From positions 580,964 to 612,963 of the forward strand of contig JACQJH010000001.1 in NCBI GenBank assembly GCA_016205145.1: a stretch of DNA of 32,000 nt, written 5' to 3'. Under the pieces are notes generated by a model. The model made no database searches. It was not told the DNA's origin and saw nothing but the letters and a program-made list of their open reading frames with translations. This DNA is from Candidatus Iainarchaeum sp. GTDB lineage: Archaea; Iainarchaeota; Iainarchaeia; Iainarchaeales; JACQJH01. Positions 1,915-32,000 of the stretch are shown here, piece by piece; the stretch's first letter is position 1; each line of letters opens with the position of its first letter. The position numbers and the translations under genes were made by a program.

Positions 1915-2847
1915 ATGGCGAAGGATGGCAAGGCTGTAAAAAAAACCAGTGCAATTGATTTTTTGACCGGCAAGGAATTGTCGCCGAAGCAGGCTGAAAA
2001 GCTTTTGGATTTGGCAGTGAATGTCAAAAAGAATCCGGCAAAATTTTCCGGCGCCTTGAAGAACAAGACTCTTGCAATGCTTTTCCAGAAGACTTCGACG
2101 CGCACGCGCATGTCGTTCGAAGCGGGAATGACGCGCCTGGGCGGGCATGCGATTTTCCTGGACTGGCGCACTACAAACCTCGCGCTTGGCGCGCTGAAAG
2201 ACGAAGTGAAGTCGATGGAACGTTATTCCGACATTCTGATGGCGCGCGTTTTCAAGCATGAGGATATCCTTGCAATAGCAGAGGCCTCGTCAAAGCCGGT
2301 CATAAACGGCTTGTGCGACAAATGGCATCCGTGCCAGGCTCTCGCGGACTATTTGACGGTCAAGGAAAAGCTTGGCAAGGTGAAGGGCAAAAAGATTGCG
2401 TTCGTCGGCGACGGCAACAATGTGTGCAATTCCCTGATTGTGATTGGCGCCTTGCTGGGGGCAAAGGTTTCCATTGCAACGCCCAAGGGATTTGAGCCTT
2501 CGCAGGACGCGGTTTCGTTCGCAAAAGGCCTTGGCGCCGAACTGTTCATTTGCAATGATGCTAGCCTGGCGGCGAAAGGCGCGGACGTCGTTTACACTGA
2601 CACCTGGGTTTCAATGGGCCAGGAAGCGGATGCGCAGAAAAAGAACGAGGCGTTCAAGCCGTTCCAGGTGACAAGGGAAATTCTTGGCAATGCTTACTTC
2701 ATGCACTGCCTGCCGGCGCACCGCGGCTATGAGATGACAGACGAAGTGATTGACTCGCCCAAGTCGATTGTTTTCGACCAGGCGGAGAACCGCATGCATG
2801 CGCAAAATGCTTTGATTCTTTGGATGCTTGGAAAGGCAAAAATTTAA
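1915..2847 (+). CDS. argF: ornithine carbamoyltransferase
   Basis: Motifs STRTRMSFE, HPCQALAD and HCLPAHRG. ATG 1915 is 1 nt after the argH stop, with AGGTGA 5 nt upstream. The track ORF start at 1882 would overlap argH. Confidence 0.9.
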   Translation: MAKDGKAVKKTSAIDFLTGKELSPKQAEKLLDLAVNVKKNPAKFSGALKNKTLAMLFQKTSTRTRMSFEAGMTRLGGHAIFLDWRTTNLALGALKDEVKSMERYSDILMARVFKHEDILAIAEASSKPVINGLCDKWHPCQALADYLTVKEKLGKVKGKKIAFVGDGNNVCNSLIVIGALLGAKVSIATPKGFEPSQDAVSFAKGLGAELFICNDASLAAKGADVVYTDTWVSMGQEADAQKKNEAFKPFQVTREILGNAYFMHCLPAHRGYEMTDEVIDSPKSIVFDQAENRMHAQNALILWMLGKAKI

Positions 2848-2873
2848 CGAAAATGCGGTGTATGTTTGGGGTC

Positions 2874-4067
2874 ATGAAAATGGCAAGCTTCAGGGTTTTG
2901 GATGGAAAAGGCATTACCTGCGTGAAAGGCATAAAGGCTGTAGGAAAGTTTGCGGGCATCAAGTCGAGCCGCAAGGACTTCTGCGTTGTCGCTTCAGATG
3001 CGCCCGCCGCAATGGCCGCTGTTTTCACGCAGAACACCGCGCGCGCGCCGCCCGTCATTCTCGGCTTGGAGCGCCTGAAGCATGGAAAATGCCAGGCATT
3101 GAATGTCGTTTCCGGCGTAGCGAATGCAGGCACCGGAAAGGAAGGCTTGAAAAACGCAAAACTGCAGGCGAAACTTCTGGCTGATGAACTTGGCATTTCT
3201 GAAAAGCTTGCCATGGTGGGTTCGACCGGCATTATCGGAAAGCAGATGCCCATGGCAAAAATCGAGTCCGCGATGAATGGCGTGAAAGGCGAATTGTCTG
3301 ATTCGGAGAAGGCGGGGATGTCTGCGGTTGAGGCGATTATGACAACTGACACGAAGCCGAAGTTCATTGCGGTCCAGGCGAACGGTTTTGCCGTTGCGGG
3401 CATGGCGAAGGGTTCCGGCATGATCGCGCCCAATATGGCGACAATGCTTTGCTACATTTTCACGGACGCCGCCGTTGGGCAGAATGATTTGCAGGCAGGC
3501 CTTTCAAAGGCTGTTGAAAAAAGCTTCAACTGCATTTCCGTTGACGCGTGCGAGTCGACAAACGATACCGTGCTATTGCTTGCGAACGGCCTGTCCGGAA
3601 AAAGGCCTTCGCAAAAGGAATTTCAGGAAGCATTGGATTTTGTCTGCCTGGATCTGGCTAAAAAAATCGTTTTGGATGGGGAAGGCGCAAGCAAGATGTT
3701 TTCCGCGACAGTCAGGGGTGCAAGGGATTTTGGCAAGGCGAAGGAAATGGCTCTGGCCATTGTAAAGTCAGACCTTGTCAAGACCGCGGTTTTCGGCAAC
3801 GACCCGAACTGGGGGCGCGTTTTGCAGGCAATCGGCCAGACGCGCATTCCATTCGAAATGGAAACGCTTGCCATTTTTTTCGGAAAGGTTCAGGTTGTGA
3901 AAAACGGCCTTGCCGCGGACTTCAATCTGCAGGCAGCGCAGACGGAAATGTCGAAAAGCGGTTTTGAGATTATCGTGATTGCGGGCAACGGAAAAGGCGA
4001 GGCAACCGCTTACGGCTGCGATCTGACTGAAGGCTACATCAAGGTCAATGCGGAGTACCCGACCTGA
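2874..4067 (+). CDS. argJ: bifunctional ornithine acetyltransferase / glutamate N-acetyltransferase
   Basis: ArgJ self-cleavage and nucleophile block PNMATMLCYIFTDA. I chose the first ATG after the argF stop; the track ORF starts at TTG 2820. Confidence 0.88.
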   Translation: MKMASFRVLDGKGITCVKGIKAVGKFAGIKSSRKDFCVVASDAPAAMAAVFTQNTARAPPVILGLERLKHGKCQALNVVSGVANAGTGKEGLKNAKLQAKLLADELGISEKLAMVGSTGIIGKQMPMAKIESAMNGVKGELSDSEKAGMSAVEAIMTTDTKPKFIAVQANGFAVAGMAKGSGMIAPNMATMLCYIFTDAAVGQNDLQAGLSKAVEKSFNCISVDACESTNDTVLLLANGLSGKRPSQKEFQEALDFVCLDLAKKIVLDGEGASKMFSATVRGARDFGKAKEMALAIVKSDLVKTAVFGNDPNWGRVLQAIGQTRIPFEMETLAIFFGKVQVVKNGLAADFNLQAAQTEMSKSGFEIIVIAGNGKGEATAYGCDLTEGYIKVNAEYPT

Positions 4068-4116
4068 ATTGTATTATGGGCTCTGATTGGTTTATGGGAT
4101 TTTTGTTGGTGGAAGA

Positions 4117-7704: not shown

Positions 7705-9432
7705 ATGCCGGATTTTAAGGAACAGCTTGCGCTTGCCCTGGCAAAGGCGCTGGACGGAAAGCTTTCCGAAAGCGAAATTCTCGGAATGCTTGAAGTGCCA
7801 CCGTCGGCCGACTTGGGCGATTTTGCGTTTCCCTGCTTCAAGCTTTCGCCTTTGCTGAAAAAAGGCCCGCAGCAGATTGCGGTTGAATTGCAGGCAAAAA
7901 TTGTTTTGCCGCAGTCTTTTTTGCAGGCAAAATCCATCGGGCCATACCTCAACTTTTTTCTCAAAAAGAAGGTGCTTGCGGAAACCGTCATTGTGCGCGT
8001 TTTGAAGGAAAACAAAAAATTCGGCTTTTCAAAGGCCGGAAAAGGCAGAAAAGTGATGGTCGAGTACAGCAGTCCGAACACCAACAAGCCATTGCACATA
8101 GGCCATTTGCGCAACGATTCGATTGGCATGGCGGTCTCGAACATCCTTGAGGCAAACGGCTGCAAGGTGTTGAGGGCAAATCTTGTCAATGACCGCGGCA
8201 TCCACATCTGCCAGTCCATGCTTGCATACCAGAAATTCGGCAAGGGCAAATCGCCGAAGCAGGCAAAGAAAAAATCCGACCATTTTGTCGGCGACTATTA
8301 CGTTTTGTTCGCGCAGAATGCCAAGGAAAATCCTGCATTTGAAGAGGACGCAAAGGCTTTGCTGAAAAAATGGGAGGCGAAAGACAAGCCCACGATTGCG
8401 TTGTGGAAAAAAATGAACGCATGGGTTTTGTCCGGTTTCAGGGAAACCTACAAACGGTTCGGCTCGCGGTTTGACAAGTTCTTTTTTGAATCGGATTTTT
8501 ATGACAAGGCCAAGCCTTTGATTGATGATGGCCTGCGGAAGGGCGTTTTCACAAAGGAATATGATGGCGCAATTGTTGCCGACCTTGAGGCATTCAAGCT
8601 TTCCAAGAAAATCGTTTTGCGCGCGGACGGCACGAGCATTTACGTCACCAATGACCTCGCTTTGACGATGCACAAGTTTGAGAAGTTCAGCATTGACGAA
8701 GCATTGTGGGTGGTTGCCTCGGAACAGAACTTTTATTTCATGCAGCTGTTCAAGATTTTCGAACTGCTCGGCTTTTCCTGGGCGAAAAAATGCAGGCACC
8801 TGAGCTATGGTATGGTTTTCCTGCCGGAAGGAAAAATGAAGAGCCGCGAGGGAAAAGTTGTCGATGCTGACGACTTGATTGTGGAAGTTGTTGGATTGGC
8901 AAAAACCGAGATTTTGAAGCGCGAGCCGCAAATTTCGAAAAAAGAGCTTGAAAAAAGGAGCCTGGCGATTGCCCTCGCGGCGATAAAGTTTTTCCTTTTG
9001 CGCGTAAGCATCCAGCAGGACATAACCTTCAATCCTGCGGAAAGCGTTTCCTTTGACGGCGAAACAGGGCCGTACGTGCAGTACACCCATGCGCGGGCGA
9101 AAAGCATTCTTGCAAAGGCGAAAGGCAGGCCGAGCGTCAAAGGGGCGGATTTTTCACTGCTCGAATCCGAAAGCGAAAAGAAGGTGCTTTCACTGCTCAA
9201 CGCATATCCCGCGCTGGTCGAGAACAGCCTTCAAAGCCTTTCCCCGCACGCTGTCTGCCAGTACCTTCTGGAATTGTCCGCGGCATTCAACTCGTTTTAC
9301 CATTCCGAGCAGGTTTTGAAGGCGGAAAGCAAGGGGCTTGTCAATGCACGGCTGCTGCTCGTGCAGGCAACTGCAACGGTCATTGCAAACGGCCTGAGGC
9401 TGCTGAACATCGAGCCGATAGAAAAAATGTGA
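7705..9432 (+). CDS. argS: arginyl-tRNA synthetase
   Basis: Class I aaRS with HIGH motif NKPLHIGHLRN. 575 aa. The C-terminal anticodon-binding region ends ...NIEPIEKM, typical of ArgRS. Confidence 0.9.
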   Translation: MPDFKEQLALALAKALDGKLSESEILGMLEVPPSADLGDFAFPCFKLSPLLKKGPQQIAVELQAKIVLPQSFLQAKSIGPYLNFFLKKKVLAETVIVRVLKENKKFGFSKAGKGRKVMVEYSSPNTNKPLHIGHLRNDSIGMAVSNILEANGCKVLRANLVNDRGIHICQSMLAYQKFGKGKSPKQAKKKSDHFVGDYYVLFAQNAKENPAFEEDAKALLKKWEAKDKPTIALWKKMNAWVLSGFRETYKRFGSRFDKFFFESDFYDKAKPLIDDGLRKGVFTKEYDGAIVADLEAFKLSKKIVLRADGTSIYVTNDLALTMHKFEKFSIDEALWVVASEQNFYFMQLFKIFELLGFSWAKKCRHLSYGMVFLPEGKMKSREGKVVDADDLIVEVVGLAKTEILKREPQISKKELEKRSLAIALAAIKFFLLRVSIQQDITFNPAESVSFDGETGPYVQYTHARAKSILAKAKGRPSVKGADFSLLESESEKKVLSLLNAYPALVENSLQSLSPHAVCQYLLELSAAFNSFYHSEQVLKAESKGLVNARLLLVQATATVIANGLRLLNIEPIEKM

Positions 9433-12256: not shown

Positions 12257-14290
12257 TCAGGTTACCATTGTGGCCTCTGTTTTCCAGCCCAATTCAACCA
12301 GTTTTTCCACGTTTTTTCTGCCGGTTTCAGTGGAATTGTCGACCCATATTTCTATCTTGTCGCCGCGCGGGCACTGGCACGCCATGCAGACAATTGTTCC
12401 AGGCGGTGCCGGAATGTTTTTGTATGAAACAACCGGAATGCCGTGGACGATTGAATAATATTCCTTTAATATTTCTTCTTCTGTCGGCGCCCTGATGTAA
12501 ACTCTGTTCAGGTCAGCATGCCATTTCTCCCACGGGTTTTCGCCGCATTGGATCGGCGCGTATGTGAGGACGGTTGTCGAAACATTTTTTTCGCCGATCG
12601 TGAATTCATCGCTTTGGGCTGTTGAGCCGTTCCCTTCCCAAATTTTTTCATTGTCATAATAGGTTATTCGCGCCTTGAATGTTCCGGTTGCCATGGTCTG
12701 CACCGGCATGGGTTCGCCGTTGACCCATTCCTTTCCGTCCCATTCTATTTCCCTTGACTGGCCCGGCTTCAGTTCGTCCGCGCTTGGCGCGCATGCCGCC
12801 ATTATCAGGGGATTTGAAATCTGCACCGGCTTCCATTCCCCGTTTTCAAGGCGGATGATTGAAAGCGGCCCGCACAGCACTGTGCCGGGCTGGATGAAAA
12901 CGCTTTTGTCCGAATCATTTGTCGCGGTAATTTTCACGGTTTCGCCCGAGGAATAGCTTTGCCTGTCGGTCTTGGCTTCAACTTTTCCGTTTCCGGGTTG
13001 TTCGCGTATTTTGACCAGCACATACATTTGCCTGATTTCCTTTGTCGGCTTGACGCTGTATTCAGATGGAACCTGTTCGTCGTACCAGCTTTGCGGCAGC
13101 ACGTAACTCAGGCGCTGCCACGTCCCGGCATTTGTCGGATAAAACATGTTCTTGTACCAGGCATTCGCAAAAGCGTTCGCCTCGCTCTTGGTGAAGCCTT
13201 TGCTTGTCAGGTCGTTTTCAAGCAGCTTTGCGTCGGGCGTGAAATCCTTCAGTTCAAGCGCGACAGTTTGCCCGGCATCGATTTTTTCGGCTGTTGCGGC
13301 TTCGACATTCGTTTCCCAGAACCCGCCGCCGTTGCTTGCAACAAATCTTGCATTGTAAACGGCAAAATCGTTGCCGTTGGTGAGGCTTACCGAATTGCCG
13401 TTTCTCTTTGCCTTGACCCTGTTTTCGAATTGCATTTCTCCTTCGTAAAACAAAAATTTGTGCTTTTTCCCGTCGATCCACAGGTCATCCGAATCAACGT
13501 TTCCGAGTTGCGGTTCAATGGATTCGATCGGCGGGCGGTAACCCTTGCTTGTGGCAAGTGCCCTGGATGGTGTTTCCTGTTTCAGTGAAACACTGCTCCA
13601 GCCCGCGGTTTTGCCGTCTGCGGTTCCGCCGGGATAGACGTCCGTGACCTTTCCGCTTGGAAGGGTGTATTTCGCCGAAAATTTGTCAACATTTTTTGCA
13701 TGAAAGTAAACAATTGGAAGTTTTACCATTGCATCCACTTCGGGCCTGCTTGTCAGAATCGCATTTGATTCGTTTTCGTGGGCTTCTATTACGCCCCACT
13801 CGTGAGCCTCGAATTTGTAATCCGTGGGTGGCGGTTCATTGTCTGGAATTTTTCCCGGATATTTTTCGAAAACAACGGGTTTTGCTGTTTTTGGAATCTT
13901 GATTATGTGATATGGCTGCACGAATGCCTGCGTGCACATTGCACCCTCCGAAGGTTCCGGCTTGTCGACAAGCGCGTAAACGTTCGACTGGGTCTGGCGC
14001 ACATCCTTTATTTCAATTGTGTAACAGCCATTCGGTTTCGAACCGAGCGCTGCCGCAATGACAGTGTATTTGTCAAAATCCATTTCAGGCATCTCTGGCT
14101 GCGGCGAAACGTTCTGCTTCAATTCCGACCAAAAACCGGCGAAGGATTTGGCATCATTGAAGACAAGGTTTCTTGCAGCCTGGATTCCGGAATTCTGGCC
14201 TTTTTCAACGGTTTCAAAGCCGACTTTTTCAATGCAGCCTGCCAGAACAAGGATTGAAAGCAGTGCGAGCGCGGCCAGGATTTTTTTCAT
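12257..14290 (-). CDS. large secreted lipoprotein, function unknown (PrcB-like N-terminal region, BsuPI-like Ig region)
   Basis: [19 protein letters not shown] signal peptide with lipobox. ATG 14290 is preceded by GGTGG. The block [13 protein letters not shown] resembles the PrcB C-terminal motif. [18 protein letters not shown]...[13 protein letters not shown] resembles BsuPI-type inhibitor folds. The domain calls are from memory only. Confidence 0.75.
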
Positions 14291-14399
14291 CAAACCACCA
14301 TTTGTTGCATTTTTGCCTATACGCACTATGGCTTTTGGTATTTAAAGGGCTTTTTGTTTGCTTAGGTAAAAGGCTAACGCTGGAATTTGCCTTGGAAAA

Positions 14400-17664: not shown

Positions 17665-17950
17665 TAAGGGCAGCGGGTGGTAAGCCGCCTTCTGTTCTGA
17701 ACTGGCATCCGTCTAAGCGTGCGACAAAGGCACTTGCACTGCAGCCTTTTCCGGCCGTTTCATCCTCGCGAAAAGAAGCTCAATTTTTTATCATCGTGCC
17801 TTTCCGCGGGTTCGTTTCTGTTCCGGAAAACCGGGAAACCCTTTCGGGTTCCCTTGGCTTAAGCAGTGGGCGGACTTTCCTCAGCCGAAAACCATTGAAG
17901 GTTTTTGCCGCATTGAAGCGGCTTGGCCGTGAGCCAGCCTCCCGCTACCC
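17665..17950 (-). ncRNA. rnpB: RNase P RNA (archaeal)
   Basis: The minus strand reads GGGTAGCGGGAGGCTGG...GGCTGAGGAAAGTCCGCCCAC (CR-I) ...GGATGAAACGGCC...CAGAACAGAAGGCGGCTTACCACCCGCTGCCC. The P1 helix (GGGTAGCGGG with CCCGCTGCCC) and the P4 helix (AAGTCCGCC with GGCGGCTT) can both form. A TATA box is centred about 27 nt upstream of the 5' G. Confidence 0.85.
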
Positions 17951-22071: not shown

Positions 22072-22111
22072 GACGGACTTTCGTTTCATTGTTCGCATAA
22101 CAATTAACTCT

Positions 22112-25080
<2,969 letters not shown>

Positions 25081-25118
25081 AAAGCCAGAAATAACGAACA
25101 ATGAATGAACTTTCTGTT

Positions 25119-25147
25119 CGGAACCGCTTTGTGGGAATGCCTATGCA
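25119..25147 (-). other. 5' arm of the 23S processing stem (bulge-helix-bulge)
   Basis: See 22043-22071. Confidence 0.8.
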
Positions 25148-25557
25148 TGGGGGCAACTTCGTTTCCCCCTATTACCCCCTTCCTCTTTTGAGAACGTAGG
25201 AGATAAAAGAAAGAAAACAATGCTACTCCCCCATAGCCTTCCCCTTGCGGAAAAAGCCATGGTTTGCTTCCATGAAAACTCCTTTCAGAGAACTAATCAT
25301 GGGAGGGCCAACGGCCCAGGTAAACGCACTGATGAAAACCGCAAATGCGGAAAAAAATATGATTTTACTTCTTCGCTTTCTTCTTCGGCCAGCCCTTCGG
25401 CCTGGCTGCAGGCGCTTCAGGCTTTCCGCCAAAAACGCTTTTCACGAAATCCATGAAACCCATTGTTTCAGACTCCCTTTTTTTCTTTTTTTTTTACCCG
25501 GCACATTGCGAAAGCAATGCGCCTTGGTTTCGGCACACGCGCCCGAAAGCGCGTGCT

Positions 25558-25630
25558 TGGACCCGACGGGATTCGAACCCGTGGCCTCCGCGATGCAAAC
25601 GCGGCGCTCTACCAGCTGAGCTACAGGCCC
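25558..25630 (-). tRNA. tRNA-Ala (anticodon UGC), CCA not encoded
   Basis: The cloverleaf folds by hand. Acceptor stem GGGCCTG/CGGGTCC includes the G3:U70 alanine identity pair. D arm is GCTC..GAGC. Anticodon stem is CCGCG/CGCGG with loop TTTGCAT. T arm is ACGGG TTCGAAT CCCGT. Discriminator is A. Confidence 0.93.
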
Positions 25631-25890
25631 TGGCCGGTTTCGTCCGGCCGGTCCGAAGTTGAGGGTTTTCGCAATGCTCAAACCCTCTGCCGGCCAAAAC
25701 AATATGCCAGGAAGACTTTTGCCCAAACTGGTTTTTATCTTTTGTGCCACGGGCAAAGCCCGCGAATACCTATGATTTGCCAACCATTAAGCGGAATTGC
25801 TTTGACCTAGTGCTTACTCGGCGTTTTGCGAAGCAAAACGCCTTAGTTTCGCTTCACGCAGCCGAAACTGCGTGCGGTCGAAAGCGCGTT

Positions 25891-25918
25891 CGGGAAATTA
25901 TAGGTTTGACTCAGCAAG
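25891..25918 (-). other. 3' arm of the 16S processing stem (bulge-helix-bulge)
   Basis: Complementary to 27518-27545. Pairing gives helix CGGGAAA/UUUCCCG, the 3-nt bulge UAA, a 4-bp helix UAGG/CCUA, the 3-nt bulge CAA, and a 14-bp helix with one G.U pair. Confidence 0.8.
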
Positions 25919-25987
25919 AAAGTATGTGCGCAGTCGGGGCCGGCCGAAGCCGGCCCTTCCTGCTTTGCCTGAATTAATCAGGCAATA

Positions 25988-27475
<1,488 letters not shown>

Positions 27476-27517
27476 GGGTTTGAAACTTCAATAGAATTGG
27501 TTTGCTTGCATTTTTGG

Positions 27518-27545
27518 CTTGCTGAGCCAAATTGCCTATTTCCCG
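27518..27545 (-). other. 5' arm of the 16S processing stem (bulge-helix-bulge)
   Basis: See 25891-25918. Confidence 0.8.
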
Positions 27546-27844
27546 AGCCTTCCACTCAAACACAAACACGGTTTTTGCAAACCATGAAAGCATCTGGCAG
27601 GCATCATACCCAAAACAACTTGGGTACTCATGGAGACACGCAGCGCATTGCTTTTGCAATGCGCTTATCGCACCGTCCCGCCGAAACGGGACAGGCGTGC
27701 CTTTTGTGAGTTTAAACCAAGAGCGCCAAAAGGCACTCTTGGAATAAAAATCCCTAATTGCCATGCGTCAAATCGGACGTCATTGCATGGCAACAACAAA
27801 AACCGTACCGGTTTTTTTGCCCTATATACATGCACCACCCGCTC

Positions 27845-27910
27845 TTTAAAAACCTATCGGGCGGGCCGGGCTTGTTTAAAAAGTTCCAAGCGCGGGCTTT
27901 TGTTAAAAAA
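27845..27910 (-). promoter_or_regulatory. three TTTAAAAA-type boxes about 30 bp apart (27845-52, 27875-82, 27903-10): candidate tandem rRNA promoters
   Basis: Read on the minus strand, they match the TTTTTAAA boxes seen upstream of leuS, dinB and RNase P RNA. They lie 370-435 nt upstream of the 16S 5' end. Orientation is ambiguous because the box is nearly palindromic. Confidence 0.35.
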
Positions 27911-27953
27911 GCCCATAAATTGCTTTTTATGTTTTTCCGCCATAAATTTTCAA

Positions 27954-28427
27954 ATGACTAATGCGGATAAAGGGTATAATTTAGTCAAAAAACTCGATAA
28001 TGGAAAAATTGCTTGTTATCAATTTGAATTTGAAGGAAAACCTATTGCGGCATATATAGGGGTTACAGTTGCAAGTGAAAACAAAATTGGTGGAGGCGGG
28101 AAAGTGGGCGCAAATCCTCTTGACCCTTCAATAAGTGCCCAAGCTATGAAAGAAAACAAAACAGAATACCAATGGGAAAAATATACGACTTCTGCATTTG
28201 CGGCAACCCACCCAGAAATCAGAAGTAAGGAAGTAAGATTGGAATTAGATAGGAAAGTTACTCAGATTTCAGGAGTTGCTGTAATGAATGCTCCGATTCA
28301 AGAACTCCCGCCTAACCAAGCTATAATTACGCCTTCGGGGGCGCTTTTGTCTACTTCTACAGGAACACTTCAAGCCAATACTGATTTTACCCTTGATAAA
28401 CTAAAAAAACATTTTACTAAATATTGA
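27954..28427 (+). CDS. hypothetical protein (157 aa)
   Basis: ATG 27954 is the first start inside the AT-rich DNA. The upstream 108 codons of the track ORF run through the G+C-rich rRNA leader and look non-coding. No family recognised. Confidence 0.6.
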   Translation: MTNADKGYNLVKKLDNGKIACYQFEFEGKPIAAYIGVTVASENKIGGGGKVGANPLDPSISAQAMKENKTEYQWEKYTTSAFAATHPEIRSKEVRLELDRKVTQISGVAVMNAPIQELPPNQAIITPSGALLSTSTGTLQANTDFTLDKLKKHFTKY

Positions 28428-28446
28428 AACCATTTCTAAGCCCGCA

Positions 28447-28514
28447 TGCAGGAGACTGCAGGAGGAAGTCTTTTAAAGAGAAACACACACCTATAGTGCA
28501 GGAGAGTGCAGGAG
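28447..28514 (+). promoter_or_regulatory. four direct copies of TGCAGGAG in two pairs flanking a TATA-like box TTTTAAAG (28471-28478)
   Basis: Copies at 28447-54, 28457-64, 28497-504 and 28507-14. Spacing is 10 bp within each pair and 50 bp between pairs. The last copy also supplies an AGGAG ribosome-binding site 4 nt before ATG 28518. Confidence 0.7.
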
Positions 28515-28517
28515 ACA

Positions 28518-29429
28518 ATGTACCCAACTATACCTACTTTAGCCACATTACCAGAAGGCCTTAAACAAGCAGTGGCAGAAAATGACTTGCCATTAGAGGT
28601 AGCACTCCAATTAACCAAATTGAATAACCCGTTTGTAAACGAGAAAATGGTTCAAGTGATAAAAAGAAAAAAGAAATATGAAAGAGACCTTTTGAAAAAT
28701 GCTTTAGCTGCCGTTAAAAAAAGTAGCCAAATGAAAACCAAAATAAATGGATTAAAAAAAATAGTTGATTCAGGAATAACTCTCTCTTCGGTTTGGGATT
28801 TTGGTAACAGAGATAACTATGCAGGCGATGCAAATTTTTATGGAAATGCTCCAACCCAAGTCGTTGAACAGTGTATTCTGAGGCTTACTAAAGAAACTGA
28901 TTTCGTTGTAGACCCTATGGCTGGTTCTGGGACAACAATCGATGTATGTAAGGCATACAACCGAAAAGTCAAAGCGTTTGATTTAACTCCGACCAGAAAA
29001 GAAGTAGTCCAAAATGATAGTAGAAATATCCCTTTGAGAGATTTTTCTACAGATTTAGTTTTTCTTCATCCGCCTTATTGGGATATGGTGAAATACTCTA
29101 TAAAACAAAATGACATATCACGACTTCCTCTAAATAACTTTTTGGATAGTATGACCCAAATCATAAATGAATCTCAAAGAATTTTGAAAAAAGATAAATA
29201 TCTATGTATCTTGATAGGAGATATAGTAAGAAAAGGAAAATTTATTTCACTATCAAGAAAGTTATCAAACATTTGTGAGAACGCAGGATTAGAAGATGCT
29301 GGATACGCAATTAAGATTACAAAAGATTCTACCAGCCAAAGAAGAAGAGGAAAAGCTATATACGCAGAACTTGCGGCAACAAAAAATTTGAAGCAAAATC
29401 ACGATATAATTATGTTTTGGAAAAAATGA
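28518..29429 (+). CDS. SAM-dependent PPY-type amino-methyltransferase (probable DNA N6-A/N4-C methylase) with a ParB-HTH-like N-terminal segment
   Basis: Motif I FVVDPMAGSGTT lies about 52 aa before motif IV LVFLHPPYW, with acidic motif II/III residues between (KAFDL, QNDSRNIPL). The N-terminal LPEGLKQAVAENDLPLEVALQLTKL resembles the helix pair after the ParB HTH. The track start is GTG 28506; ATG 28518 is preferred. Confidence 0.8.
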   Translation: MYPTIPTLATLPEGLKQAVAENDLPLEVALQLTKLNNPFVNEKMVQVIKRKKKYERDLLKNALAAVKKSSQMKTKINGLKKIVDSGITLSSVWDFGNRDNYAGDANFYGNAPTQVVEQCILRLTKETDFVVDPMAGSGTTIDVCKAYNRKVKAFDLTPTRKEVVQNDSRNIPLRDFSTDLVFLHPPYWDMVKYSIKQNDISRLPLNNFLDSMTQIINESQRILKKDKYLCILIGDIVRKGKFISLSRKLSNICENAGLEDAGYAIKITKDSTSQRRRGKAIYAELAATKNLKQNHDIIMFWKK

Positions 29430-30143
29430 TTATTCTTTTGATATTTTTACCAATTCATTTTTTTGTTGTTCGGTTTTACTTTTTTCATATTCTTTTTTTC
29501 CATTCACAAATTCTTGAACTGCATTGTCAGGCAACGGGTGTACCCCTTTCCCATCAATTCGTGCCATTTTTATTTTTCCGCCTACGTCACCATCAATACT
29601 AATTGTTTCAACCATTGTTTTAGCAACTAAAAAACACATTTCATCTACTCCATAATTTTTATCATATTCTTTTGACAGGATATAACGTGCAATGAAGGGT
29701 TTGCCTTCAGCAACTGTATTATCCCCTCTTCCCGAGAAAAACAAATTTTCACTTCTTAAAACATAAATTTTTGGCATAACTTTAGTTTTTATTTTATCTA
29801 ACCCTGCGATAATTATTGTAACGCTTGGAAAACTTTTACTTCGTGGGTTTATAGTATCTGATATATGGGAAATTTCTTTTTTACAAAATCTTTTAAATTC
29901 AGAAACAACATCAGTTACATACCATTTTTTTGTTTTTGAATATTTATATTTAAAATCTTCTATTAACTGCATGGCTATCTCAGGGTCACCTGCAACTAGC
30001 GCACAAGAATAATCAGTCAATTGAATCATTTTTTGCGCAACTAAAGATTCCATTCTCGAACCGTCGTTATCTACCCACGTTCCTTTACTATCCGCAGCGA
30101 GAACTAAATAATCTTTTCCAGATACCGCAATAACAAGTGTCAT
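29430..30143 (-). CDS. stand-alone proteasome-beta/HslV-like Ntn peptidase
   Basis: Begins MTLVIAVSGKDYLVLAADSKGT. This places Thr directly after Met (Thr1) and Asp at mature position 17, with a QKMIQL lysine matching the Lys33 region. Overall length and block order resemble archaeal proteasome beta (my recollection of the Thermoplasma sequence). It has a K/E-rich C-terminal tail. Confidence 0.7.
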   Translation of the reverse strand: MTLVIAVSGKDYLVLAADSKGTWVDNDGSRMESLVAQKMIQLTDYSCALVAGDPEIAMQLIEDFKYKYSKTKKWYVTDVVSEFKRFCKKEISHISDTINPRSKSFPSVTIIIAGLDKIKTKVMPKIYVLRSENLFFSGRGDNTVAEGKPFIARYILSKEYDKNYGVDEMCFLVAKTMVETISIDGDVGGKIKMARIDGKGVHPLPDNAVQEFVNGKKEYEKSKTEQQKNELVKISKE

Positions 30144-30147
30144 ACTT

Positions 30148-30711
30148 TCACGTTTCCTTATTTACTCTTTGTGTCACAAGACTTGTTACAATTTGATTAA
30201 TAGTTTTATTTTGCTTTTTTGCTATTTTTTTTAATTTTTCAAATTGCTCATTTTCTAAGGAAACAACAACTAAGTTTAATGTGGCTTTTAGCTCCTTTGA
30301 CTTTTTTAATCGATTAATTTGATTTTCTATTGAGACCCCGCGATTATTTTTTGCAAACCTTATCATATCCCTTGCATCGTGTGCACTAAGCCCAACTATT
30401 GAGTTAGCAATTCTTATTTGGTCTTCTTTGTTTTTGATTGCTAACAGCCTCCAACCCAAGTCTTGAGTAATTTTATTTTCTTTTATTAATTGCTTTATCT
30501 CTGATGGCAAATCTAAAAGTTTTATAGTAGAACGAACCATTTCTCTGGACAATGAAAGCAACTTTGCAACTTTTCCATCAGACTTATATTTATCTTTAAG
30601 CTCCTTGAATTTTTCGGCTAAAAATATCCAGTCGTGGGTTTGTTTTCCTTTTGCCTTAAAATTAGAATATATGATGGCAAATATTTCATCTTCATCAACT
30701 TTTTTAGTCAT
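30148..30711 (-). CDS. ParB-HTH-only protein with a C-terminal ribbon-helix-helix-like segment
   Basis: KVAKLLSLSREMVRSTIKLLDLPSEIKQLIKENKITQDLGWRLLAI is a ParB HTH-domain pattern, and no ParB/Srx N-domain is present. The C-terminus LNLVVVSLENEQFEKLKKIAKKQNKTINQIVTSLV fits a beta-alpha-alpha (RHH) pattern. There is an ATGA overlap with the upstream gene. Confidence 0.7.
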   Translation of the reverse strand: MTKKVDEDEIFAIIYSNFKAKGKQTHDWIFLAEKFKELKDKYKSDGKVAKLLSLSREMVRSTIKLLDLPSEIKQLIKENKITQDLGWRLLAIKNKEDQIRIANSIVGLSAHDARDMIRFAKNNRGVSIENQINRLKKSKELKATLNLVVVSLENEQFEKLKKIAKKQNKTINQIVTSLVTQRVNKET

Positions 30712-31541
30712 TCTTCTTGTCCCCTAACGTAACCCTTGATTATTTCGGTGAGAAGGTCTTCTATGCCAATTTTATTTTTACTATTGTTTGCAATTCCTTG
30801 AATTTTATCGAAGTCAGACCTATCAACTAAAACAGTGAGTTTAATTTTTCTGGAAGGTTTTTTTGCCTCGGCTAATATTTCTTCAATAGATGCATCTTTA
30901 TTTTCCATACCCACATCTAGTATATTATCCCATTCTGGTTTTGTCATTCCTATCATATGTCTTGCAATTTTCACGATTTTTTCCGATTTTGGCCAAAAAG
31001 CAGTAGTTAATTTATAGGCTTGTTTCGGGTCAAGTTTTTTTTCAGCTACCATGTCTCTTACTTCTTTTGGTATGATTCGGTAAGAGAGATATTTAGTAAC
31101 TGTTTGAAGAGATAAACCAACATCCGCAGCTACTTGTTCTAATCTCTTTGATTGCGTCCCCGTATACTTACTAAATAATTCATCACATACTCTAATAGTG
31201 TCATTATACGGCAGTTTTGTTCTATTGACATTTTCAGAGAATGAAATAATTCTTTTTGTTAACTCATTAACATTATTGATTAATATTGCTGGAATTTCTT
31301 CTCGTTTTAATTCTTCGAATGCCCTAAATCTTCTTTGCCCTACAAGAACTTTGAATTTTTTATTTCCTTTTCCTTCGGTTAAAAGTATGGGGTGGATAAG
31401 TCCGACATTTTCTATACTCGCTTTTAGCACATCTAGATTATTTTTTCTACCTTCAGTTCTAACATTTAAAGTGTCAACTTCAATATCGTTAATGTTTGCT
31501 TCAAAATATTTTCTATCTTTTATATAGTCAAGTGTAGCCAT
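30708..31541 (-). CDS. ParB/Srx-domain protein with HTH and a C-terminal ribbon-helix-helix-like segment
   Basis: The ParB N-domain shows the arginine patch VLVGQRRFRAFEEL (GxRRxRA type) and IHPILL. The HTH is QVAADVGLSLQTVTKYLSYRIIPKEVRDMVAEKKL. The C-terminus is KLTVLVDRSDFDKIQGIANNSKNKIGIEDLLTEIIKGYV. ATG 31541 is preceded by AGGTGA. The track start at 31568 is less likely. Confidence 0.8.
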   Translation of the reverse strand: MATLDYIKDRKYFEANINDIEVDTLNVRTEGRKNNLDVLKASIENVGLIHPILLTEGKGNKKFKVLVGQRRFRAFEELKREEIPAILINNVNELTKRIISFSENVNRTKLPYNDTIRVCDELFSKYTGTQSKRLEQVAADVGLSLQTVTKYLSYRIIPKEVRDMVAEKKLDPKQAYKLTTAFWPKSEKIVKIARHMIGMTKPEWDNILDVGMENKDASIEEILAEAKKPSRKIKLTVLVDRSDFDKIQGIANNSKNKIGIEDLLTEIIKGYVRGQEE

Positions 31542-31549
31542 ATAGTCAC

Positions 31550-31846
31550 CTAGTGGGTGGCATTCCAATTATCTCGTAAATTTTTCCATTCTTCAATAGT
31601 TATTTCTTTTCTGCCTAATTTACTATTTATCTCAGAAATAAAATCGCCATAGTCTTTAACTTTTTTATCTTTTTGTTCAGCCTTTTCCACTTCCGAACTT
31701 AACTGTTCAATATCTTTGATGTCGTGATTTATCGAAAAGTGTTTCAGGATATCCTTAAATTCGCATTTACAAATTGGGCAAAAATTATTTGTCAATCTAC
31801 CACCTTGTTTTTTGTCTTTTTGAAACCCCTTTGACTTAAAGCCCAC
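31550..31846 (-). CDS. small C2H2-type zinc-finger protein
   Basis: CPICKCEFKDILKHFSINH gives the pattern C-x2-C-x9-H-x4-H. The maximal ORF starts at GTG 31846. The more likely start is TTG 31795, which overlaps the TGA stop of the upstream 50-aa ORF (TTGA) and follows AAGGTGG. Confidence 0.6.
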   Translation of the reverse strand: MGFKSKGFQKDKKQGGRLTNNFCPICKCEFKDILKHFSINHDIKDIEQLSSEVEKAEQKDKKVKDYGDFISEINSKLGRKEITIEEWKNLRDNWNATH

Positions 31847-31944
31847 TTAAAAAGCTTGGTTGGGCTTATTTGATTATTTTCAAGAAACTTCTTTTCATCG
31901 TTAGTTAAGGAAACGGAAACCCATTTAATTCCAGAATTAGCCAT
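31792..31944 (-). CDS. 50-aa ribbon-helix-helix-like protein (below the ORF-track size cut-off)
   Basis: Hand translation gives MANSGIKWVSVSLTNDEKKFLENNQISPTKLFKWALSQRGFKKTKNKVVD. The beta strand (KWVSVSL) followed by two helices fits an RHH pattern. It is the first gene of the operon and sits downstream of an AT-rich, TATA-rich region (31945-32000). Confidence 0.5.
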   Translation of the reverse strand: MANSGIKWVSVSLTNDEKKFLENNQISPTKLFKWALSQRGFKKTKNKVVD

Positions 31945-32000
31945 ATATGCCAAATTATATAAGTTATACAATAACTTTAAAAGCTTATTATATTATATAA

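Follow-up and report, generated by a model that had tools for sequence, protein, structure and literature searches.

Locus and gene content

The DNA described here is a 32,000-nt stretch (the window) of contig JACQJH010000001.1, from a metagenome-assembled genome (MAG) of Candidatus Diapherotrites, a DPANN archaeon, and the subject of this report is a gene cassette at its right-hand end. In the cassette, a minus-strand operon encoding a C2H2 zinc-finger protein, a ParB protein, a truncated ParB paralogue and a proteasome-like threonine peptidase converges on a plus-strand gene for a DNA amino-methyltransferase (MTase), referred to below as the modifier. The window carries one copy of a compact module that moves horizontally among archaea and whose core (ParB, paralogue and peptidase) is inherited as a unit. 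The features of the window are listed in Table 1.

A first-pass annotation, made from the letters of the window, had called seven open reading frames (ORFs) here, and all seven are present, with coordinates corrected as in Table 1. The four junctions it described within the five-gene operon match the sequence: a TTGA overlap between the 50-aa ORF and the zinc-finger gene (31792-31795), an 8-nt gap between the zinc-finger and ParB genes, where AGGTGA overlaps the TAG stop (31542-31552), an ATGA overlap between the genes for ParB and its paralogue (30708-30711), and a 4-nt gap between the paralogue and peptidase genes (30144-30147). The stop codons of the convergent MTase and peptidase genes abut (29429/29430). 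The families proposed for the MTase, the peptidase and the 187-aa and 277-aa proteins were borne out by profile searches, and the C2H2 ligands of the zinc finger are conserved, whereas the ribbon-helix-helix (RHH) assignment of the 50-aa protein found neither a profile nor a PDB match. The proposed gene set was also narrowed: the zinc finger, ParB, paralogue and peptidase are conserved, but the 50-aa gene and orf157 are not, and the modifier is swappable.

Table 1 Features of the window, the cassette being listed ahead of the host features
Feature	Position	Strand	Basis or remarks
Peptidase, 237 aa	29430-30143	-	PF00227
HTH-only ParB paralogue, 187 aa	30148-30711	-	PF17762
ParB, 277 aa	30708-31541	-	PF02195, TIGR00180
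C2H2 zinc-finger protein, 81 aa (TTG start 31795)	31550-31795	-	Conserved C2H2 ligands
50-aa ORF	31792-31944	-	ORF call; possible ribbon-helix-helix pattern
Putative partial promoter of the five-gene operon	31945-32000	-	Read from sequence; ends at the window edge
MTase, 303 aa	28518-29429 (ATG; NCBI start GTG 28506)	+	PF01555
Modifier promoter/operator	28446-28517	+	TGCAGGAG dyads around TTTTAAAG
orf157	27954-28427	+	ORF call
Left border of the low-GC island	27900-27953		GC about 48 % to about 29-37 %; composition profile, Logan contig L019
16S-tRNAAla(TGC)-23S operon	22111-27474	-	
Archaeal RNase P RNA	17669-17949		

Conservation of the core

Loci for comparison were taken from the contigs of peptidase relatives, from six species-representative genomes (Micrarchaeota, Aenigmatarchaeota, three Bathyarchaeota and one Nitrosotalea) and from 37 JGI metagenome loci, and were annotated with hidden Markov models built from the confirmed cassette components. 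At least 48 non-redundant archaeal loci were obtained, 45 of them with DNA upstream of the peptidase gene, and the counts given here are lower bounds. The cassette occurs in Diapherotrites, Aenigmatarchaeota, Micrarchaeota, Nanoarchaeota-labelled archaea, Bathyarchaeota and Nitrosotalea MAGs, as well as in metagenomes.

The helix-turn-helix (HTH)-only ParB paralogue lies immediately upstream of the peptidase gene, on the same strand, in 44 of the 45 loci, with the full-length ParB gene before it where the contig reaches that far, and this collinearity holds down to about 27 % peptidase identity. The sole exception, locus L047 (7085-8095), has a truncated peptidase remnant (residues ~102-202) and neither ParB nor the paralogue. 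This remnant adjoins a gene of the 3'-phosphoadenosine-5'-phosphosulfate (PAPS) reductase family that still carries GCAGG dyads, a promoter element described below. L040 has another full-length ParB gene (2256-3092) after the peptidase gene, its GQRR motif intact, which suggests tandem or nested cassettes.

Across 32 loci, the pairwise identities of peptidase, ParB and paralogue correlate with one another (r 0.80-0.87, Mantel p ≤ 0.001), showing that the three have evolved together and are inherited as a unit. The possibility that the peptidase gene is an unrelated passenger, which the first-pass annotation had named, together with a parA just beyond the window, as fatal to its proposal, is ruled out by the conserved order and by these correlations, and the joint occurrence of the genes beyond the window locus, which it had asked to be looked for, is evident in the same 44 of 45 loci.

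The peptidase and its wider family

The peptidase matches PF00227 at 2.7e-10, above the curated cut-off, a profile of its family finds the M. jannaschii beta subunit (1.2e-12), and an AlphaFold2 (AF2) model (pLDDT 88) gives TM scores of 0.7-0.84 against the Thermoplasma beta subunit. None of 20 close and 40 broader homologues departs from Thr1, Asp17 and Lys33. The N-terminal threonine nucleophile in a beta-subunit fold is present, with T2, D18 and K38 invariant, and the active site is predicted to be intact. The protein has no propeptide, its mature N-terminus being threonine once the methionine is removed, and it has an extra C-terminal helix. Some representatives of the family begin MS..., so that Ser1 may replace Thr1 in these. 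The label of proteasome-beta/HslV-like peptidase given in the first-pass annotation holds in its first half, by profile and AF2 model; an HslV-like assignment was rejected, the protein being closer to genuine 20S beta subunits in both profile and structure comparisons. With the NCBIfam model arc_protsome_B the peptidase reaches 26 bits, the cut-off being 224. Neither an alpha subunit nor an HslU/PAN-type AAA+ unfoldase was found in the cassette, and none recurs in the flanks.

Close relatives of the peptidase are few and all come from uncultured archaea. An exhaustive profile search extended the family to 70 clusters at E ≤ 1e-30 and 233 at E ≤ 1e-10, and its distant part is bacterial (741 proteins, among Dehalococcoidia, Sedimentisphaerales and Mycobacteriales). 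The bacterial relatives stand alone, without ParB, in all three loci examined (L057, L058 and L059), and linkage to ParB across the entire peptidase family was accordingly rejected. The ParB-coupled operon is therefore regarded as an archaeal innovation upon a widespread orphan peptidase. The islands that surround two of the three bacterial genes also contain Type I restriction-modification genes, AbiEii, RadC, an MTase-Mrr fusion, a resolvase and integrases.

The 22 new proteasome homologues of the 2021 survey by Fuchs, Alva and Lupas include two groups with C-terminal coiled coils, ACC in archaea and the widespread WPH; no informative gene context was reported for any of the 22 (PMC8665760). 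The cassette peptidase shares the beta-subunit fold and Thr1/Asp17/Lys33 with 20S beta, HslV, Anbu, BPH, WPH and ACC, but differs from the 20S and HslVU systems in having no linked alpha subunit or AAA+ partner. Its C-terminal helix recalls WPH, ACC and Anbu, as predicted for their coiled-coil extensions, and the spread of its wider family over archaea, Chloroflexota, PVC and Actinomycetota recalls WPH. The family may belong to WPH or ACC (reference sequences WP_040339656.1 and WP_161937350.1, respectively), a likeness by description in taxonomic spread and C-terminal helix.

ParB, its paralogue and the small genes

The 277-aa ParB matches PF02195 (8.8e-13) and TIGR00180 (72.1 bits, cut-off 58.45). 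A nucleotide-binding ParB/Srx domain at its N-terminus is followed by an HTH and by a C-terminal tail with the order strand-helix-helix. Among 36 homologues, Box II (G-Q-R-R-x-x-A) and Box III (E-N-x-x-R) show little or no variation, and the nucleotide-binding pocket appears intact. The closest solved relatives are the cytidine triphosphate (CTP)-dependent clamps Noc (6e-12) and Spo0J.

The 187-aa protein is paralogous to ParB residues 136-251 (BLASTP 1e-6). It has no nucleotide-binding domain and keeps the ParB-type HTH (PF17762, HTH_ParB, 2.2e-11) and an RHH-like C-terminal tail, for which there is a weak RHH_4 match (2e-4). Its AF2 model (pLDDT 86) superposes on the DNA-binding domains of Noc, Spo0J and KorB with a root mean square deviation of 1.7-2.5 Å. 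The C-terminus, modelled as an extended segment followed by two helices, matches the RHH proteins AvtR (0.0028) and ParG (0.029) marginally.

Homologues of the zinc-finger gene lie directly upstream of ParB in most loci, making it the first conserved gene of the core operon, and its ligands, CxxC-x9-H-x4-H, persist in 10 of the 11 members aligned. In place of the zinc finger, the most divergent branch has a small AbrB-like gene. The 50-aa ORF has no Pfam, PHROG or PDB match, a beta-alpha-alpha residue pattern alone hinting at RHH, so an RHH fold was dropped as a supported claim; with a homologue in L003 only, it is a lineage-specific accessory gene. No match to orf157 was found in Pfam, PHROGs, PADLOC or NCBIfam, nor any homologue among the 59 loci fetched; it was rejected as a system component for that reason and probably lies outside the system. 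The GC content of orf157 is intermediate (~38-45 %), and the ORF, situated between the rRNA promoter region and the MTase promoter, may be lineage-specific or spurious.

The swappable DNA modifier

A modifier gene adjoins the core in 35 of the 48 loci, among the matches listed. The 13 loci without one are mostly short contigs that end near the core, although L034, L040, L049 and L050 are longer contigs and likewise have no adjacent modifier. Two kinds of modifier were found. A convergent MTase, in the same position and orientation and with a stop codon that abuts that of the peptidase gene, is present in six loci of the window clade (the window, L002, L003, L004, L011 and L035), and a PAPS-reductase-family gene (PF01507) is present in 29 loci, among the matches listed, either upstream, where it is codirectional or divergent, or downstream and convergent.

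The window MTase matches PF01555 (7.6e-20) and the PADLOC model MTase_II (5e-25); it is of the PF01555 type and not of the PglX type. Compared with the beta class of N4/N6 amino-MTases it is circularly permuted, motif I (AGSGTT) standing ahead of HPPY (seen against 2zie), and both motifs are invariant in six MTase homologues. The first ~80 residues of the MTase resemble, with moderate confidence, the post-HTH helices of the ParB paralogue (hhalign 76 %, E 2e-5), which preserves part of the earlier suggestion of a ParB-HTH-like N-terminus; the HTH itself is not what is matched. The 277-aa ParB (positions 36-123) and the MTase (458-575) both match phrog_498, a ParB-MTase fusion family.

The PAPS-reductase modifiers of the type-B loci match SspD (1.7e-33, nearly full length, for the short ones), BrxP (1.3e-34, for the long ones) and, more weakly, DndC. 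The BrxP match of the long enzymes covers 94-330 of the 779 profile positions, and the short enzymes fit SspD better. Enzymes like SspD and DndC are confined to type-B loci. PADLOC recognizes the MTase and the PAPS reductase only.

Promoter repeats

The element TGCAGGAG occurs four times in 28447-28514 and twice in the rest of the 32 kb, compared with a shuffle expectation of 0.85 per window. The four copies form two tandem dyads 50 bp apart (28447-28454 and 28457-28464; 28497-28504 and 28507-28514), and a TATA-like TTTTAAAG lies between the dyads at 28471-28478. The bracketing of this promoter by four repeats had been pointed out in the first-pass annotation; the repeats are real and locally enriched, and the architecture recurs across the family. 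In L003, L004 and L011 the order is likewise a tandem GCAGGA dyad, a TTTTAAA(G) box, a second tandem dyad and an ATG, with reading frames that differ between loci, and the same boxes precede the PAPS-reductase genes of type-B loci in up to eight copies. Of 37 GCAGG-N4-6-GCAGG dyads in 443 kb, 32 lie at the 5' end of a modifier gene on the modifier strand, the shuffle expectation being 2.7 in total, and such dyads mark the modifier promoter in 19 of 32 testable loci. This shared cis-element, together with the adjacency of a modifier in 35 of 48 loci, upholds the functional link that had been proposed between the two convergent halves of the locus.

The repeats were also considered as a conserved N-terminal peptide, MQExAG. 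The window sequence ATGCAGGAGACTGCAGGAG would encode a start of this type, but an in-frame TAG follows at 28494-28496 and makes the modifier promoter stretch non-coding. This reading was rejected because the frames differ, because of the in-frame TAG, and because the boxes precede unrelated PAPS-reductase genes. Since the boxes stand in different frames across loci, the element is one of DNA and the N-termini of the homologues have been over-called. Gene callers add ~20 codons (MQExAG...) to the MTase homologues (window 28446-28517, L003 11624-11693, L004 4511-4580 and L011 6596-6659), and the true MTase start is probably the downstream ATG, giving ~303 aa.

In the most divergent branch, where the PAPS reductase is long and BrxP-like with a Zn-ribbon at its N-terminus and the small gene is AbrB-like, GAAGAG-N4-5-GAAGAG dyads surround TAAATA instead (L043 ~3950-4090, L044 ~1180-1320, L051 ~1200-1340 and L052 ~1740-1880); operator and regulator apparently co-vary in this branch.

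The region 31945-32000 would be the promoter of the five-gene operon. It has a TATA-like box, CTTTTAAAG (31975-31983), between TTATATAA repeats, and operon promoters generally carry their own AT-rich repeats around a CTTTTAAA(G/C) box (L004 1090-1200, window 31945-32000 and L003 ~8090-8155). The repeats are TCTATATAGA palindromes in L004 and TTATATAA in the window and L003, where they lie upstream of the RHH-like gene. These repeats are unlike the modifier operator, and the cassette is therefore considered to have two separately regulated promoters. No conserved 16-bp palindrome of the parS type was found, the conserved elements being the direct GCAGGA repeats at the promoter of the modifier. 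The likeliest candidates for binding the GCAGGA dyads are the RHH tails of ParB and its paralogue, because direct repeats spaced by roughly one turn of the helix suit cooperative binding by RHH proteins; the tails are weakly favored over the zinc finger, because L004 has the boxes and no zinc-finger gene.

Genomic context and the low-GC island

Positions 1-27,900 of the window have ~51 % GC and contain housekeeping genes, namely those for ArgRS, LeuRS, AlaRS and a DinB-like polymerase, the RNase P RNA gene and the rRNA operon, to which no 5S gene is linked in the window. Near 27,930 the composition steps from ~51 % to ~31 % GC, ~450 bp upstream of the 16S gene and just past the presumed rRNA promoter, and the low GC persists up to the window end. 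Type-A cassettes in four other genomes (every genome examined) show the same feature, with 28-35 % GC within flanks of 42-43 %.

Independent data bear on the join. The Logan contig L019, assembled from run SRR12113383, equals window positions 27205-29854 at 100 % identity and takes in the 5' end of the 16S gene, the GC junction, orf157, the MTase gene and part of the peptidase gene; since it crosses the junction, the join is not specific to one assembler. Logan contigs with identical island genes reach window position 31,965. A single NCBI contig of 612,963 bp carries the host LeuRS (MBI4052987.1) and AlaRS (MBI4052989.1) and the island MTase (MBI4052998.1), peptidase (MBI4052999.1) and ParB (MBI4053001.1), the protein accessions (MBI4052987-MBI4053001, locus tags HY394_03100-03110) running consecutively from host genes into island genes.

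The commonest neighbors of the cassette across the loci are DDE transposases, integrases, Eco57I/MmeI Type IIG and Type I restriction-modification genes, HEPN proteins and TraG-like ATPases, and several copies are isolated 3.5-kb islands in chromosomes. Among 2.9 million viral contigs (IMG/VR) no relative was found with the peptidase and the ParB paralogue as queries, and a viral origin of the cassette was rejected on these grounds. As the first-pass annotation had remarked, no ParA is visible in the window. Of the loci with flanks of 6-10 kb, only L004 and L032 have a deviant Walker-A ParA (KGGxGK[ST]), and no ParA family recurs in a Pfam survey of the neighbors.

Two further observations concern the host part of the window. 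A 128-aa ORF called in L019 at 27378-27764 on the minus strand overlaps the 16S 5' end and leader and is almost certainly spurious. A 689-aa host protein (12260-14326, minus strand) has PrcB_C as its sole Pfam match, a domain named after the bacterial proteasome beta subunit; it is positionally unrelated to the cassette.

Comparison with known systems

The absence of any described system of this composition, asserted in the first-pass annotation, was upheld: the combination of ParB and a proteasome-like peptidase is not described in the literature searched, which covers few subscription journals, and PADLOC has no match for the core genes. Each known system fails at least one defining feature, whether ParA, a restriction endonuclease, PglZ/BrxC, DndD/SspC, or an alpha subunit/AAA+ partner. 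By composition, the conserved core corresponds to no described system in the libraries and papers searched; all its parts come from known families.

The closest parallel in logic is bacteriophage exclusion (BREX), which is likewise modification-based and without a dedicated nuclease. In BREX the modifier is swapped between the adenine MTase PglX (type 1) and the PAPS reductase BrxP (type 4) (PMC12914056), and the component BrxL is a Lon-like protease-family protein that forms a chambered DNA-binding ring (PMC10164562). The cassette similarly combines an interchangeable MTase or PAPS-reductase modifier with a protease component. It differs in that PglZ and BrxC/PglY were not found (PADLOC on the window proteins, and the neighbor surveys), in that its protease is an N-terminal nucleophile (Ntn) threonine peptidase rather than Lon-like and its DNA-handling proteins are of the ParB family, and in its size of ~3.5 kb against 10 kb or more.

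The Dnd and Ssp systems also bring a PAPS-reductase-family enzyme (DndC or SspD) together with a ParB-superfamily protein, and DndB is a ParB-superfamily regulator paired with DndC (PMC3632139). The cassette has no adjacent DndD/SspC ATPase, DndE, desulfurase or DndFGH/SspE, however, and its window copy uses an MTase; moreover, DndB is of the DGQHR/DUF262 type and not an HTH-ParB clamp, and neither Dnd nor Ssp has a peptidase. Fusions of ParB with N6_N4 MTases are frequent in phages (bioRxiv 10.1101/2025.10.10.680097) and couple the same two domain families (PF02195 and PF01555; phrog_498), whereas the cassette has them as separate convergent genes, adds the paralogue, zinc finger and peptidase, and can replace the MTase by a PAPS reductase. 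The ParB-fold survey that reports these fusions mentions no peptidase and no PAPS reductase (bioRxiv 10.1101/2025.10.10.680097).

Other systems share single features. The cassette has the ParB with nucleotide-binding domain and HTH of ParABS but not the cognate ParA gene next to parB, and the amino-MTase with AdoMet motif I and xPPY motif IV of Type II restriction-modification but no cognate endonuclease. C-proteins control expression in Type II restriction-modification systems. Such systems resemble the cassette in having a modification-gene promoter flanked by tandem repeats, presumably bound by a cassette-encoded protein, an arrangement suggesting that modification is timed or under feedback control, but the cassette operators stand at the modifier and not at C/R genes, no endonuclease was detected in the cassette, and the candidate regulators belong to the RHH, zinc-finger or ParB families, in contrast to the HTH-type C-proteins. 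In gene silencing, KorB is locked by KorA. The KorB-KorA pair and Noc are ParB-family CTP clamps that act without ParA in DNA-bound regulation, with a second small DNA-binding partner as in the cassette; here, by contrast, the partner is a truncated ParB paralogue, the C-termini are RHH-like, and modifier and peptidase are linked. The PRTRC system differs too, with TIGR03734 at 44 bits against a cut-off of 278.6 and no ThiF-like gene in the cassette.

Proposed function

The module is interpreted as a modification-dependent self/non-self or addiction system with BREX-like logic, built from other protein families, to which a probability of about 45 % is given. In the proposed mechanism, a cassette-encoded DNA-binding protein would bind the GCAGGA dyads and set the expression of the modifier, in the manner of C-proteins, and the modifier would mark the resident DNA. 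ParB and its paralogue would load on DNA as a nucleotide-gated clamp, with loading or retention tied to the modification state. The Thr1 peptidase would be the output, either as an effector against invader or host or through turnover of the DNA-bound complex or of regulators. It is suggested more tentatively that the module represents a new archaeal immune or addiction class, in which a ParB clamp and a truncated partner read modification and deliver or license a Thr peptidase effector, with a swappable modifier under GCAGGA feedback.

Several points weigh against this interpretation. The same facts fit a self-protective or regulatory modification module. No nuclease family scored above threshold among the cassette proteins (Pfam, PADLOC and NCBIfam), and as a helicase and a P-loop ATPase are missing too, a restriction-like output of any kind is conjectural. 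The short PAPS reductases have no adjacent P-loop ATPase (DndD/SspC) or desulfurase, partners that known phosphorothioation systems need (PMC12914056). The silence of PADLOC on the core genes is expected for an undescribed system and gives no support. The GCAGG dyads are absent from 13 of the 32 testable loci, the L002 copy lies among housekeeping genes, and the right-hand end of the island falls outside the window.

A self-protective or epigenetic module of mobile elements, in which ParB loaded on the element's DNA at the GCAGGA arrays would recruit or activate the modifier in cis, marking that DNA against host restriction or for gene regulation, and in which the peptidase would only turn over ParB or the small regulators, with no defense or toxic output, is judged rather unlikely, although several features accord with it. 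ParB-type NTPases are known partners of DNA-modifying enzymes, as in the phage fusions, in the DndB-DndC pair and in a ParB-dependent T-dioxygenase of phage (PMC13229309); the paralogue-like N-terminus of the MTase could be a docking module, arrays of up to eight boxes look centromere-like, and the context is that of mobile elements. Such a module leaves unexplained, however, why a protease with a seemingly intact active site is retained and co-evolves so tightly, and it has against it the absence of viral relatives in IMG/VR and the several copies that stand as isolated chromosomal islands rather than in recognizable elements.

The proposed function also has to be set against a plain addiction module of the toxin-antitoxin kind, in which the peptidase would be a stable toxin restrained by labile DNA-binding partners (the zinc finger, RHH or AbrB proteins and the ParB paralogue) and the modifier a co-selected passenger or a second layer of addiction. 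The translational coupling of the genes, the mobile low-GC island, the restriction-modification, Abi and integrase islands of the bacterial relatives, and the interchangeable small upstream gene (zinc-finger, RHH-like or AbrB-like), as antitoxin and regulator genes are, would all suit such a module. It is nevertheless considered quite unlikely: a toxin-antitoxin pair needs no two large ParB-family proteins with a conserved nucleotide pocket, and the modifier is linked, and has operators of its own, too consistently to be a passenger.

Very little likelihood is left for a conventional partition module (ParABS-like or type Ib) of an integrated element, with parA beyond the window and the peptidase and MTase unrelated to it. 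The 277-aa protein does pass the partition-ParB model TIGR00180, the direct-repeat arrays do resemble centromeres bound by RHH proteins such as ParG, and the window ends 56 bp upstream of the operon, so that parA could lie further on. But ParA-type proteins occur in just two of the loci with longer flanks, the peptidase is collinear in 44 of 45 loci and co-evolves with ParB, and the boxes are on the modifier promoter and not beside parB. Archaeal HTH-ParBs, which are rarely found with ParA, have also been judged unlikely to act in segregation (bioRxiv 10.1101/2025.10.10.680097).

An assembly or binning artefact, with low-GC DNA of another DPANN archaeon joined to the Diapherotrites rRNA operon, had been foreseen in the first-pass annotation and is suggested by an abrupt 20-percentage-point GC step beside an rRNA operon, a classic chimera site, but it is highly improbable, as the switch lies outside conserved 16S sequence, L019 spans the junction at 100 % identity, the accessions are consecutive on one contig and type-A cassettes elsewhere are low in GC too, and the cassette itself is validated by about 47 other loci even if the junction is chimeric.

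Implications

Should the immune or addiction class suggested above prove real, a stand-alone proteasome homologue would for the first time have a functional role other than protein quality control, and a ParB clamp would for the first time be seen coupled to proteolysis. The locus provides a strict, testable genomic context for a family of stand-alone proteasome homologues, and the defined cis-element (GCAGGA dyads) and clear point mutants (Thr1Ala, and GQRR to GQAA) make its biochemistry accessible. With it, the ParB nucleotide-switch fold gains a protease and a swappable modifier as partners, and this in archaea, where HTH-ParBs occurring without ParA had gone unexplained (bioRxiv 10.1101/2025.10.10.680097). 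The interchange of MTase and PAPS reductase beside a protease parallels BREX with unrelated parts and may point to convergent, nuclease-free, modification-based discrimination. The module moves among DPANN, Bathyarchaeia and Thaumarchaeota, largely uncultured archaea whose defense and mobile-element biology is almost unexplored.

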